This document shows positions 23,243-52,981 of a stretch of 64,000 bases of DNA, piece by piece. Position 1 is the first letter of the stretch. Each line of letters starts with the position of its first letter. The position numbers and the translations under genes were made by a program. The DNA is taken from the sequence record MH791411.1; one strand, 5' to 3'. The DNA comes from Escherichia phage Ecwhy_1. A model generated the notes under the pieces. That model had not been told where the DNA came from, did no database searches, and saw nothing but the letters and a program-made list of their open reading frames with translations.

Positions 23243-28477
<5,235 letters not shown>

Positions 28478-38952: not shown

Positions 38953-39876
38953 TTACTTAAAAGTATTTACGATTTCCAAAACACTTTCAAGATACTTAGC
39001 ATCAAAAGTTTCAGTAAATCCTGATGGTAACTCTTCAGTACTTACAACACCACTTTCAATGTATTGCTTGATGAACTTTTCCAATAATAATGGTTTGTTA
39101 CCATCCTCAAAGTAACGTTCTACCAGTACAGTGTGTTCAAAATCAGAATCACGGCTTTGTTCATGAATTCGCCTCTTCATGTCACCAGTAATTCCGTATT
39201 TGTAAACGACTTTTGAGTTATTAGATAGTTTTTGTACATAGAAATATCCAGGCTTTGATGGTTGATAACCATACTCACCACATGATGGACATCCTCTTCC
39301 TGCCATATGAGATTTGGGTATTTGTTTAAAGACACCATGTTCAGGACAAATAATATCCACATGTTCATCACTAGTCTTGTAATCCACCAAGCTATAATCA
39401 TACTTATGGTTATGGATAGGCGACACAAGTTCAATGAAACGTTCAGTACTTCTTCCACCTTTACCAGAACATATTCCACAACTAGTTTTTCCTTTTAATA
39501 ATGTTGCGGCTGATACTTCCCAATCATGAACATCATTTGGATCGTTGTGACATGTTACCGTCACTTTCCCATTACAATCACGTTGTCTTTTGTAGATAGT
39601 TTTTTCAAATGACAATGTTGGATGAATTGTTTTTACTTTCTCTATGAACGTTTCAGTTGTGTATGCTGTATTTTTTTGGCAAATATTACATCCCTTTGCA
39701 GTAGATCTTACAATTTGCATAGGAGTGATTTTGAAATAATGACCACCTTCCACACAATAAAGTTCAACCTGTTTATGTGCATTTATGTATACCATTTTAT
39801 CAAACAAATAAACCCCAGTGCCATATTTTTCATTCACCGTATTGATAAATTTTTCTTCATTTGGATTCATTGTCAT
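38953..39876 (-). CDS. zinc-ribbon repeat + C-terminal T5orf172-domain protein (freestanding homing-endonuclease-like)
   Basis: 307 aa; three repeats with Cys/His clusters (e.g. KYDYSLVDYK...VDIICPEHGVFKQIPKSHMAGRGCPSCG), then YFYVQKLSNNSKVVYKYGITGDMKRRIHEQ. Confidence 0.55.
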   Translation of the reverse strand: MTMNPNEEKFINTVNEKYGTGVYLFDKMVYINAHKQVELYCVEGGHYFKITPMQIVRSTAKGCNICQKNTAYTTETFIEKVKTIHPTLSFEKTIYKRQRDCNGKVTVTCHNDPNDVHDWEVSAATLLKGKTSCGICSGKGGRSTERFIELVSPIHNHKYDYSLVDYKTSDEHVDIICPEHGVFKQIPKSHMAGRGCPSCGEYGYQPSKPGYFYVQKLSNNSKVVYKYGITGDMKRRIHEQSRDSDFEHTVLVERYFEDGNKPLLLEKFIKQYIESGVVSTEELPSGFTETFDAKYLESVLEIVNTFK

Positions 39877-49523: not shown

Positions 49524-50323
49524 GGTTTTAAACTACAGAATTGATTGAATTGAATTATGAAAGGAATTAATTATTTTATAGTGAACTCATCTAACTCATT
49601 TCATTCGTTAGCTGAAGAATATTCGTTACTACGTAACTCATATTCATTTCTTATAATTAATTATAAAGAACTTTAAAAGATTTAATACTTGACGGGATTT
49701 GTTGAAGACATTTTCATCCCCCCGCAGGGGAATGAAGACAATAAAAAAGAGACAATTAAGTCTCTTAATTCTTGACGCTGATGGTTTCAGCATTTATTGT
49801 ATTGCGAATTTCTTAAAATTCATTAAGAACGAAAGCGGGTTGCTCTGTTTCTCTCTATCGCAGTCATGTGCAACGGTCGTCAGTCTTAATCATCCTGACA
49901 CTCACCTGAAAGTCTATACAATCAAACTTCAGGCTGTTTATTAAATCACTTAATAAACTCCCTTAGCAAATCTGGTAAGGTGCGATCCTTATACATCTAT
50001 CGAGGAACTCTCTGTATGCTTATCGGAGTTCTTTATTGAGCCGTGTCGCCGTGAGGGGTTCAAACTATGCCCACATCTAACGGGTTTCTTCTGCTCATCG
50101 CACTGTTGAACTGCTCATCTGCCATCTACATTTTCGATAGGATCAGGTTCTAATTTATATGCATTTCTGCATTCAACAGGATTGTCATCACTACAATTAA
50201 CATTATAGCACCAAATTCAAAAGTGTCTCACTATTATGATAAAAAATTTATAAAAAGTACATAATTCTTGAACATTGAAGTAACGCATAAATATTTTGAT
50301 AAGAATTAGTTTAGTGGGGATTT

Positions 50324-50815
50324 ATGAAGAAAAGATTAAAAGATAGTAAAGAAGCTGCAAACTATCGAAATGAATTACTAAAGAAGCAAAAAGGAATTGA
50401 TCCTATAATTAAGGAACCAATCACTAAGCCAGTACTTGATCACTATCACTTCGAGAATCAACACTGTCGTGAAGTTCTCCAGAACGAAGTGAACGCATGG
50501 GAAGGTAAAGTACAGAACAGCTTTAATCGCTATATGAAGCACTTAACCGATAAACCCTTATACGAGGTACTACGAAATCTTGCGGATTATCTGGAGCGTA
50601 ATAACAGCATTCCTGAAGATGAGCAAGTTATACATCACACTGCACTAACAATCGATACGAATAAGTTTAAAAGGCTCCCAGCAGGACAACAGAATGCAAT
50701 ACTGGAAGAGTTAGGTGTTATCCCTGGTGCAAACAATGCTGCTCGTGTTAAGCAAGCCAGAAAGCTTATCAAGGAAGGCAAATTAAATATGGTAGATATA
50801 AAAAAAGGGAGCTAA
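50324..50815 (+). CDS. Endonuclease VII-like protein (T4 gp49 family-like His-Me finger core, zinc Cys apparently absent)
   Basis: 163 aa; PVLDHYHFENQHCREVLQNEVNAWEGKVQNSFNRY aligns by eye to EndoVII core LDHDHE...CNLCNAAEG...FNR. Confidence 0.5.
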   Translation: MKKRLKDSKEAANYRNELLKKQKGIDPIIKEPITKPVLDHYHFENQHCREVLQNEVNAWEGKVQNSFNRYMKHLTDKPLYEVLRNLADYLERNNSIPEDEQVIHHTALTIDTNKFKRLPAGQQNAILEELGVIPGANNAARVKQARKLIKEGKLNMVDIKKGS

Positions 50816-50822
50816 GGCTCCC
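50807..50822. terminator. bidirectional rho-independent terminator (GGGAGC-taa-GGCTCCC)
   Basis: Hairpin between convergent genes; TAA stop of the plus-strand gene sits in the loop. Confidence 0.6.
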
Positions 50823-50833
50823 TTTCCTTTTAA

Positions 50834-52981
50834 TTAGAATACATCATCAAGAGTTGTATACTCAACAGTACTGAAACCATCCTCTTTAACTACTTTTAGG
50901 ATTTTCTCAGTCTTAGAAAGCAATTCTTCTCTGTGAGAAATGGCATATACATTCTTACCACGCACAGCAGCCATATCTTGGAAGATAGACCACACGCGAA
51001 GAACACCACTTGAATCAAGACCTTGGTCAATCATCTCATCAATGATAAGAATATTGATACTTTGATACAATGACTCATATGTATCACGGAAAGCACAAGA
51101 TAAAGCAATGTTTACCCTTGTACGCTCACCGCGACTAAGCTGTTTATAGTCAAAGTACTGACCACTTTTCTCAATTTCTACACTCAAATCATTCAAGAAC
51201 ACAACATTATGTTCAGAACCACACATATCAATGTAATATTGAAGACGTGTATTCAGATACGAAATGTTTTGTTCAATAATACGCTTACGGACATAAGAAT
51301 CCTTGTTTAACAACAATTTAACCAAGAAATCTTGGTGATTTGCCATCTTATCAAGGTTATTATAGTCACTATAGTCGATTGGTACTAATGAATCGGTCGT
51401 AAGTGTATTAATTTGTCCAATAAATGTGTTAGTAGTTTTCAATTCACGATCTAATTGCTGCGATAATGAAGTTACTGTCATTTCTAACTCTTTTACTTCA
51501 GATTTATTCAATGTATCTGGTACTTCTTGAAGAACATGTGCGTTCAGTTCTTCATATGATGACATAAGTTCATTAGCATAGATGTTAATTTGCTCTTCTT
51601 CACTCTTTTTAATAAGTTCTTGAAGCTTATGCTCATGCATTTGTGCTTCAGTTAGTGTAGAATAGAATGTCACAGGCTTAGGTGGCATATCAAAAATCTC
51701 AATACTATCAATTTCCTGAAGTATTGTTTCAATTTCAGAAGCGGAACTATCAATTTTCGATTGAAGTTCATTAATAGTATTTTGAATTTTATCTTTAATA
51801 GACGAAGTATGTTCATTATGTTCTAATTCGGACATACAAAGTGGACATTTACTACTCTCCACTGTTGCTAATTTGTCCACCTCAGCACGTAACGAACTCT
51901 CATGACCATTTAAAGCCACCTTTAATGCGTTAAGTTTTTGTTCTTTGAAACGTTTTTGGTTATTATTCTCTTTTAGAATACCCTCCAACTGTTTCCATAT
52001 CTCCAACTCATTGTGATTTTCTAATTCAGTACTGATATCAATAGTTTTTAGCTTATCAATACTTACATTTAATGCTAATTTTGCTGTTGCTAGTTCACGG
52101 TCATATGCATCATACTTCAAAGCTAACTCTTGCACACGTCTTTCTATTTGATCACGAGCAGCATTATGAATAAGAGCTTTCTCTTTCACTTCTGCCAAAT
52201 CATAGAGATCGTTGAAGTCTAAAGTTTTGTAGATATTCAATTCTTCAGTCAACTTAGATACTCTATTATTTTTATCAATCTCAAATTGGTTAGCTTGTTC
52301 TTGTAATGATTCAATACTTTTTTGAATACGTTCATTACTTGCAGCCACAGTTTCAATTTTAAACTTTTCTTGTTCAGCTAAACGTTTAGAATCTTTATAC
52401 ATATCCTTTAATAGTTCAGCTTTCTCTGTTAATTGTGTGATGCCCAGAAGTTCCTCAATCATATCACGTTGTTTCTGTGATGATAATGCAAGAAACGGCT
52501 CTACGTTAGCATTAAGTACTACAATATGTTCAAATAGTAGTTGAGAAATCCCAAGAATCTCGTTTAGATCTTCTTGTGTATCTTTCTTCTCCCCTCTTGA
52601 CTCATCTTCGACCTTATTATCTTTACCTAATGTAATAAAGTTGAAATACGTGGGACTTCTCCCACGCTCGACGAGATATTGTACACCATCTTTCTCGAAC
52701 TCAACAGATACTTCACAGTTTTTAGCATTAGTTTTATTAACTAAGTTTGGAATTTTGATATCGTTACCAATACTTTTTCCAAACAAACCAAAAACTAAAC
52801 CTTGAATGATGGCACTTTTACCAACACCATTACGGCGACCGGAACTATCACCACCTTCAATAACTGCATCATTGTTTTGACCAAGAACTAACGATATATC
52901 AGCACCAGACAAATCAATTACTTGTGGTGCATTGCCAAATGAAAAGAAGTTCCTCATTGATATACGTGTAATGTTTAGCAC
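50834..52981 (-). CDS. recombination/repair ATPase, Rad50/SbcC-like (T4 gp46-like)
   Basis: 715 aa; Walker A GKSAIIQG, long coiled coil with CPLC zinc hook, C-terminal signature/Walker B region. Confidence 0.85.
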   Translation of the reverse strand: MLNITRISMRNFFSFGNAPQVIDLSGADISLVLGQNNDAVIEGGDSSGRRNGVGKSAIIQGLVFGLFGKSIGNDIKIPNLVNKTNAKNCEVSVEFEKDGVQYLVERGRSPTYFNFITLGKDNKVEDESRGEKKDTQEDLNEILGISQLLFEHIVVLNANVEPFLALSSQKQRDMIEELLGITQLTEKAELLKDMYKDSKRLAEQEKFKIETVAASNERIQKSIESLQEQANQFEIDKNNRVSKLTEELNIYKTLDFNDLYDLAEVKEKALIHNAARDQIERRVQELALKYDAYDRELATAKLALNVSIDKLKTIDISTELENHNELEIWKQLEGILKENNNQKRFKEQKLNALKVALNGHESSLRAEVDKLATVESSKCPLCMSELEHNEHTSSIKDKIQNTINELQSKIDSSASEIETILQEIDSIEIFDMPPKPVTFYSTLTEAQMHEHKLQELIKKSEEEQINIYANELMSSYEELNAHVLQEVPDTLNKSEVKELEMTVTSLSQQLDRELKTTNTFIGQINTLTTDSLVPIDYSDYNNLDKMANHQDFLVKLLLNKDSYVRKRIIEQNISYLNTRLQYYIDMCGSEHNVVFLNDLSVEIEKSGQYFDYKQLSRGERTRVNIALSCAFRDTYESLYQSINILIIDEMIDQGLDSSGVLRVWSIFQDMAAVRGKNVYAISHREELLSKTEKILKVVKEDGFSTVEYTTLDDVF

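Follow-up and report, generated by a model that had tools for sequence, protein, structure and literature searches.

Gene content of the locus

The gene under study occupies positions 50324..50815 (+ strand) of the window, i.e. the entire 64,000-nucleotide stretch that was analyzed; it starts with ATG and encodes a 163-amino-acid protein that we identify as a zinc-less homologue of endonuclease VII (EndoVII), the putative analogue of T4 gp49. The end at position 50831 reported in the first-pass annotation corresponds to the end of the coding sequence (50815) plus a hairpin. Phages fEgEco12 and BF17 encode a 100% identical protein, labelled 'endonuclease VII' or 'DNA endonuclease VII'; in EC.P1 and WPEC3, the same product is listed as a 'hypothetical protein'. 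The gene itself is not new and carries the EndoVII annotation in several genomes.

Over the 6 kb around the EndoVII gene, identity is 99.9% with phage fEgEco12 and 99.4-99.9% with phages EC.P1, WPEC3, Turkey3, WPEC5, vB_Ec-M-J and BF17; judged by its sequence, the window is DNA of a Rak2-like (Asteriusvirus) jumbo coliphage. The EndoVII gene is preceded by a gp26-like baseplate hub gene and some small ORFs. On the other side, a gp46/SbcC(Rad50)-like recombination nuclease gene (50834..52981, − strand) converges on the EndoVII gene and shares its terminator; beyond it, on the same strand as the gp46-like gene, follow a gp47/SbcD-like gene and a gp55-like sigma factor gene. Across genera, the EndoVII gene is single-copy and syntenic, with the baseplate hub gene on one side and the convergent gp46/47 genes on the other.

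When the window was compared with PP777464.1 (fEgEco12), the coordinates were found to diverge by ~968 nt between the terminase and EndoVII regions (~27000-50000), so that the window represents a close relative of fEgEco12 with an indel, not fEgEco12 itself. The gp17-like large terminase (24580..26882, − strand) is divided among three ORFs that overlap in different frames (26196..26882, 25880..26224 and 24580..25917), and fEgEco12 has it annotated as three CDS (g367-g369); frameshifting, an intervening element or a true split could account for this arrangement. Rfam and tRNA scans of the window produced no match.

A predicted terminator hairpin and putative upstream expression signals

The EndoVII gene and the convergent gp46-like gene have stop codons 18 nt apart, with a hairpin at 50804..50825 that has the features of an intrinsic terminator acting on both strands, namely a G+C-rich stem between convergent genes and a U-run on each strand. 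The stem consists of positions 50804-50812 (AAAGGGAGC) and 50817-50825 (GCTCCCTTT), i.e. nine pairs, five of them G-C, closed by the loop TAAG (50813-50816). The first three loop bases (50813-50815) are the TAA stop codon of the EndoVII gene, so that the stop codon indeed lies, as originally noted, in the loop of a predicted bidirectional terminator. A and T runs flank the hairpin: seven A's precede the stem and TTTCCTTTT follows it on the + strand, and read on the − strand the tail is TTTTTTT. The + strand folds with a predicted energy of −15.3 kcal/mol (z −2.4) and the − strand with −17.6 kcal/mol (z −3.3); within 1.8 kb, six terminator-like sites were observed vs. 0.8 expected.

The hairpin is retained in PBECO4, Munch, Kaldavass and Serratia BF, with compensatory changes in the stem (GGGAGC/GCTCCC vs. 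GGAGCC/GGCTCC), and the proteins of these phages end in KKGS or KKGA. In RaK2, the hairpin is absent, the next gene is co-directional and the C-terminus of the protein is KRDQK. The record of Munch annotates the hairpin as a terminator, and 'terminator' is found under the match in two other records. Given this conservation, and given that the 5' arm of the stem encodes the last residues K-G-S, the C-terminal residues of the protein appear to be, in effect, a translated terminator arm.

Upstream of the gene, a motif resembling T4-type late promoters, CATAAATA (50286..50293, + strand), is located 30 nt 5' of the ATG. In PBECO4 and UE-S1, the exact T4 late-promoter consensus, TATAAATA, occurs at this site, where CBB, GAP32, BF and Kaldavass have TTAAATA or CTAAATA. 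As ATAAATA has been predicted to be the late promoter of Rak2-like phages (CBB paper, PMC5259590), we infer from the motif and its position that CATAAATA acts as a late promoter of the EndoVII gene. A Shine-Dalgarno-like sequence, GTGGGG (50314..50319, + strand), is located 4 nt before the ATG; the orthologues carry GGGG, GAGG or AGGG at this position.

A structured, RNA-like repeat upstream of the EndoVII gene

The spacer immediately 5' of the EndoVII gene (379 nt, free of ORFs) contains a ~225-nt structured RNA-like element (49940..50165), and the repeated unit to which it belongs extends over about 49659..50211. Other copies of the repeat are located at L012:10899-11121 (−), L016:13141-13364 (−) and L013:12654-12895 (−). 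In total, the dispersed repeat was found at 259 places in 61 Rak2-like phage records, with 3-5 copies per genome; all four copies in fEgEco12 are intergenic, and the copy proximal to EndoVII is syntenic in at least five genera. Phages of Erwinia, Serratia, Pectobacterium and Cronobacter carry the element at 72-81% nucleotide identity; their EndoVII proteins are ~60% identical, and synonymous sites are saturated; the element is thus far better conserved than the flanking genes. No match to the repeat element was found in Rfam.

An alignment of 13 copies from eight genomes fits a structure of eight helices, in which 96.6% of the cells are standard pairs, compared with 34-48% in slid controls; 71 compensatory cells were counted vs. 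5-13 in the controls, and none of the 500 shuffles reached the observed values. The same picture was obtained for 37 further copies from IMG/VR contigs (186 compensatory cells vs. 10-35). Covariation in the aligned sequences strongly supports this predicted 8-helix structure, and invariant G-U pairs favor the + strand of the window. Most copies have a phage-type promoter, T[TG]GACG-N12-TATAAAT, on the + strand side. From the opposite side, a sigma-70-type promoter with an extended −10 element (GAGACA-16-TATAAT, after TG; 50202..50231, − strand) points into the repeat and away from the EndoVII gene, and the same promoter is present at 4 of the 4 copies in fEgEco12. The repeat is thus faced by conserved promoters from both sides.

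Two small ORFs on the + strand (49699..49944 and about 49557..49676) within the ~550-nt repeated unit correspond to g340 and g341 of fEgEco12, both annotated as hypothetical proteins; because small ORFs at other copies of the repeat are annotated on inconsistent strands, these calls are probably spurious. In Salmonella phage Munch, the RNA element and EndoVII are separated by an inserted, divergently oriented gene for a Cys-rich repeat protein (CPT_Munch_274; L007:1-444, −); the window has the homologue of this gene ~10 kb away, at about 39274..39870 (−).

Homology to T4 endonuclease VII

The first-pass annotation recognized an EndoVII-like protein from core motifs, all of which are found in the translation: LDHYHF spans residues 38-43, EG 60-61 and FNRY 67-70. 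The relationship was corroborated by four lines of comparison. The protein matches PHROG 423 'endonuclease VII' over residues 1-148 (E = 2.8e-34). A single-sequence phmmer search against PDB sequences gave no match, and a profile was needed: that of 34 homologues retrieved the T4 EndoVII chains 1e7d/1en7 (E = 6.9e-7), aligning residues 22-133 with 19-138. When the 34-homologue alignment was compared by hhalign with 11 cysteine-bearing relatives, the probability was 100% (E = 2.4e-42, 147 columns). Finally, Foldseek comparison of an AF2 model (mean pLDDT 79.9) with the PDB yielded, as the only significant matches, the three T4 EndoVII entries (161 alignment columns, probability 1.00, TM 0.49-0.57). 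The pTM of the AF2 monomer is low (0.43), which would be compatible with an extended chain that needs a partner, T4-type EndoVII being a domain-swapped homodimer, and the confidence of the model is lowest (pLDDT 55-71) near residues 41-60, a stretch that includes the second replaced ligand pair and the start of the catalytic helix.

The alignment to the Pfam profile Endonuclease_7 (PF02945), which had been suggested as a check, scored 16.4 bits (E = 0.0085), below the gathering cut-off of 23.6, in contrast to the match to PHROG 423. A sub-threshold score is to be expected if the Pfam model gives weight to the cysteines. An NCBIfam search with the EndoVII protein gave no match. By these sequence comparisons, the protein is a full-length homologue of T4 endonuclease VII, far beyond chance. 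The extents of the profile, hhalign and Foldseek matches indicate that the similarity spans the C-terminal helical domain as well, and not the His-Me core alone.

The missing zinc site

In T4 EndoVII, zinc connects the N-terminal end of the catalytic helix with the knuckle that lies ahead of the first beta strand. The corresponding structural zinc site, i.e. CX2-4C and CX2C flanking DHxH, is absent from the protein described here, all four positions being occupied by residues other than Cys. In three independent alignments (HMMER, MAFFT and hhalign), T4 C23/C26/C58/C61 align with D26/I29/Q53/V56. Codons 26-29 (D-P-I-I; 50399..50410, + strand) are found where T4 has the first zinc pair, C23-x-x-C26 (HMMER and hhalign), and codons 53-60 (Q-N-E-V-N-A-W-E; 50480..50503, + strand) contain Q53 and V56 in place of C58 and C61, together with N57 and E60, the equivalents of catalytic N62 and E65. 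The lack of all four zinc cysteines, noted in the first-pass annotation, thus withstands proper alignment, which places neither Cys nor His at the four positions. Of the two replacement sites that the annotation had named, QNEVN (residues 53-57) is the second pair, whereas YRNE (residues 14-17) is not the first one, the alignments pointing instead to D26-P-I-I29. D26 is invariant within the close clade (the 34-homologue alignment). The sole Cys of the protein, C48, is opposite T4 V53 in the second beta strand; in the wider zinc-less clade, V or I occupies this position in over half of the members.

The CX2-4C...CX2C zinc site is a highly conserved part of the pattern published for the 'DHHRN' family of Fang et al. 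2018 (PMC6083498). As far as the account of Giraud-Panis et al. (1995) given in PMC6083498 goes, the C23S and C61S mutants of T4 EndoVII are inactive and do not bind DNA, whereas the single mutants C26S and C58S are active. The inactivity of C23S and C61S implies that loss of the zinc site is not trivially tolerated and needs compensation.

Distribution of zinc-less forms

Among 120 close homologues (56-99% identical) found in a word-indexed search, none has the four zinc cysteines. To cover more distant relatives, we ran a profile search against 1.84 billion cluster representatives, which gave 592 matches at E ≤ 0.001, and examined the best 150 of these 592. Of these 150, 146 could be sorted by the state of position 26, with Cys in 66 and Asp in 80; outside the tallied groups, one E and one S were seen. 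Of the 66 representatives with Cys at position 26, only 10 have a full ligand set (CCCC or CCHC) and 56 have the first Cys only, so that the full set is lacking in about 135 of the 146 distant representatives. Because the search profile was built from zinc-less sequences, these proportions are biased towards zinc-less relatives and do not estimate a family-wide share. Across the representatives, position 53 is polar (D, H, Q, S or E) and positions 29 and 56 are T, L, I, V, A or S; common patterns at the four zinc positions are DTDT, DTDV and DTHS.

Zinc-less EndoVII proteins are also encoded by the rV5-like phages FV3 and Hena1 and by the Ralstonia podophage RsoP1IDN, and the SP6 gp22-like protein of ACG-C91 retains CPIC...CRGC. 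In a neighbor-joining tree of 142 family members, which is star-like with long terminal branches, cysteine-bearing sequences appear in at least three places; with so little resolution in the tree, we draw no count of zinc-site losses (one or several) from it. What had been treated as an oddity of a single gene is, judged by these homologue tallies, the normal state of a large phage subfamily. On the evidence of the aligned sequences, the zinc-less state is a property of the whole subfamily, and the literature searched, which includes only a minority of the subscription journals, contained no description of a zinc-less EndoVII.

These tallies bear on the possibility that a metal is kept at or near the old site through non-thiolate ligands, such as D26 with Q53 or the D/T/D/T and D/T/H/S sets of relatives, or at a relocated site formed by C48, H47 and H73, which would make the protein a metal-swapped EndoVII. 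The restriction of position 26 to Asp or Cys in 146 of the 146 tallied representatives, the usual D, H, E, Q or S at position 53, and the possible hard-metal ligands contained in the patterns DTDT, DTDV and DTHS speak in favor of such an arrangement, as does the invariance of C48 and H73 within the Rak2-like clade. However, I29 and V56 are aliphatic, leaving at most two ligands in this protein, and no alternative set of ligands is conserved: H47 varies even among close homologues, and in most members of the wider zinc-less clade position 48 is V or I, with position 73 frequently being W, Y or K. On balance, a metal-swapped site appears improbable. As a family feature, the relocated C48/H47/H73 site was rejected, these positions being V/I, variable and W/Y/K, respectively, in other zinc-less members.

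The catalytic residues, selection and function

In contrast to the zinc ligands, the catalytic set is kept, with D39, H40, H42, R49, N57 and E60 corresponding to T4 D40, H41, H43, R54, N62 and E65. Codons 39-42 (D-H-Y-H; 50438..50449, + strand) align with T4 catalytic D40, H41 and H43, and codon 49 (R; 50468..50470, + strand), which aligns with active-site R54, is invariant in every group. R54 belongs to the 'DHHRN' family motif, and the roles of these catalytic residues in T4 have been summarized (PMC6083498). With respect to membership in that family, the motif D39, H40, H42, R49, N57 is aligned on the beta-beta-alpha-metal core by HMMER, MAFFT and hhalign alike. All five residues, as well as E60, are invariant in 120 of the 120 close homologues; the five are also conserved in essentially all of the 146 distant representatives, a single D-to-E change at position 39 being the one exception within codons 39-42, and E60 is variable among the latter. 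Comparison with the PBECO4 orthologue (91% amino acid identity) gave dN/dS = 0.06 (dN = 0.055, dS = 0.92). The gene is under strong purifying selection.

The fEgEco12 genome, which shares 99.9% identity with the window across the 6 kb compared, served as a stand-in in the search for a second EndoVII or another resolvase. When the window and the rest of that genome (~375 kb in all) were scanned in six frames with an HMM, the EndoVII ORF alone was recovered (E = 1.2e-57), the next best hit having E = 0.095; the HMM covered T4 and cysteine-bearing members and is specific for EndoVII, so that RuvC and RusA are excluded through annotation only. No RuvC, RusA or other resolvase is annotated in the fEgEco12 record, which does annotate RecA/UvsX-like, UvsY-like, gp32, gp46/47, helicase, terminase and portal genes. 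In a comparison of jumbo phages (Iyer et al. 2021; PMC7824862), a T4 EndoVII-like enzyme is listed as the Holliday-junction resolvase of this group, and its distribution is largely complementary to that of RuvC. The CBB genome paper (PMC5259590) counts EndoVII as one of the T4-like functions that serve recombination and packaging in Rak2-like phages.

Two interpretations had been offered at the outset, a divergent resolvase and a non-catalytic derivative. The latter would be a junction-binding protein whose nuclease activity was lost along with the zinc site; the protein does lack the site on which T4 EndoVII depends for DNA binding and activity, and the Pfam match is sub-threshold. Against such a loss stand the invariance of all six catalytic residues in the close homologues and of the first five in essentially all distant representatives, the dN/dS of 0.06, the single-copy state of the gene and the fact that the EndoVII scan and the annotation revealed no other resolvase in a genome with T4-type recombination proteins; we consider a non-catalytic derivative very unlikely. 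The invariant catalytic residues, the low dN/dS and the fact that no other resolvase is annotated or was found support the divergent resolvase.

A nuclease of the EndoVII fold could have another job, such as homing or site-specific cleavage of the F-CphI or Hpy99I type, or degradation of host DNA, given that this catalytic motif is also used by homing and restriction enzymes (PMC6083498; PMC5714182). The match to T4 EndoVII, however, includes the C-terminal domain that binds the DNA arms, and not the catalytic core alone, and a single-copy gene that is syntenic across genera is unlike a patchy mobile gene; a different job is very unlikely. The intact catalytic set, the purifying selection, the uniqueness of the EndoVII ORF and the genomic setting lead us to read the protein as a working, zinc-independent resolvase and not as a dead derivative. 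We assign a probability of roughly 80% to the view, derived from comparative sequence analysis, that this ORF encodes the working resolvase and debranching enzyme of the phage, the analogue of gp49.

A proposed mechanism

The working resolvase envisaged here would be a homodimeric nuclease of the His-Me-finger type with Holliday junctions and other branched DNA as substrates. Its cleavage would resolve intermediates of recombination and remove the branches from the replicated concatemer, rendering the ~350-kb genome packageable. By analogy with T4, D39 and N57 would be the Mg2+ ligands and H40 the general base, with H42, R49 and E60 also belonging to the catalytic set. The gene would be transcribed late, from the T4-type late promoter, and the transcript would end at the hairpin that presumably also terminates the convergent gp46/gp47 operon.

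The fold would be held without zinc. In the simplest reading, D26, an invariant Asp where other branches have Cys, would form hydrogen bonds or a helix-capping contact with the polar Q53 or with backbone amides, thereby anchoring the N-terminal knuckle at the beginning of the catalytic helix, and I29 would pack against V56 as a hydrophobic core. Both the D26-Q53 contact and the I29-V56 packing are suggested by the states of the four positions, namely Asp or Cys at 26, polar residues at 53, and aliphatic or hydroxylic ones at 29 and 56. The broader proposition, that the EndoVII fold does not need the Cys4 zinc and that a large and diverse phage clade swapped the thiolate site for an Asp-centered contact, is a speculative one to which we give rather low credence.

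Significance of a zinc-less subfamily

T4 endonuclease VII is the textbook phage junction resolvase. The Cys4 zinc site is counted as a signature of its family, and yet a natural subfamily, comprising Rak2-like jumbo phages, rV5-like phages, a Ralstonia podophage and many metagenomic clusters, keeps the catalytic centre without it. Pfam and the published 'DHHRN' pattern under-detect such proteins, as illustrated by the sub-threshold score obtained here and by the label 'hypothetical protein' in several GenBank records. The subfamily amounts to a natural experiment in the replacement of a zinc knuckle. If the loss is adaptive, junction resolution and packaging would have been freed from zinc supply and thiol oxidation in the infected cell, and, if true, the subfamily would provide a natural template for zinc-free engineered resolvases. 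For the gene itself, the practical outcome is ordinary, i.e. the probable resolvase/debranching enzyme of the phage, already annotated as such.

Comparison with known systems

The protein is similar in length to T4 EndoVII (gp49; PDB 1en7, 1e7d and 2qnc), with 163 vs. 157 amino acids, and has the same elements in the same order: an N-terminal helix, the knuckle, the beta-beta-alpha-metal core, long helices and a C-terminal helical domain. The catalytic D/H/H/R/N/E residues are the same, the C-terminal domain is opened by a conserved His (H104, equivalent to H105 in T4), and the genes share a T4-type recombination/packaging setting and a late-type upstream promoter motif. Unlike in T4, however, none of the four zinc cysteines is kept, the two beta strands are joined by a loop that is shorter by 4 residues, and the Asteriusvirus branch has a 4-residue insertion, I-P-E-D; overall identity is only ~20%. 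The neighborhood differs as well, the EndoVII gene converging here on the gp46-like gene.

The nearest cultured relatives outside the Rak2-like phages are the EndoVII proteins of FV3 and Hena1 (Vequintavirinae, rV5-like), designated 'EndoVII packaging and recombination endonuclease', and of RsoP1IDN. These have the full DHHRN set in addition to being zinc-less likewise, and FV3 and Hena1 have a G-[IL]-D-P-I motif in common with the protein described here. The similarity (41-48% identity) covers the N-terminal half only, the C-terminal regions being different or shorter; in the literature searched, we found no biochemical characterization of these three proteins. The SP6 gp22-like EndoVII proteins of Autographiviridae (e.g. 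ACG-C91) and the PF02945/'DHHRN' family as published have the same catalytic motif and belong to the same fold family but, unlike the protein described here, carry the canonical CxxC...CxxC zinc site.

Outside this family, the beta-beta-alpha-metal core can be stable without structural zinc, as in phage P1 Ref (PMC5714182). Such zinc-knuckle-free His-Me finger nucleases belong to other families, use other stabilizing elements and are not full-length homologues of the protein described here; the existence of other His-Me finger members without a zinc knuckle nonetheless gives zinc loss a precedent at the level of the superfamily.
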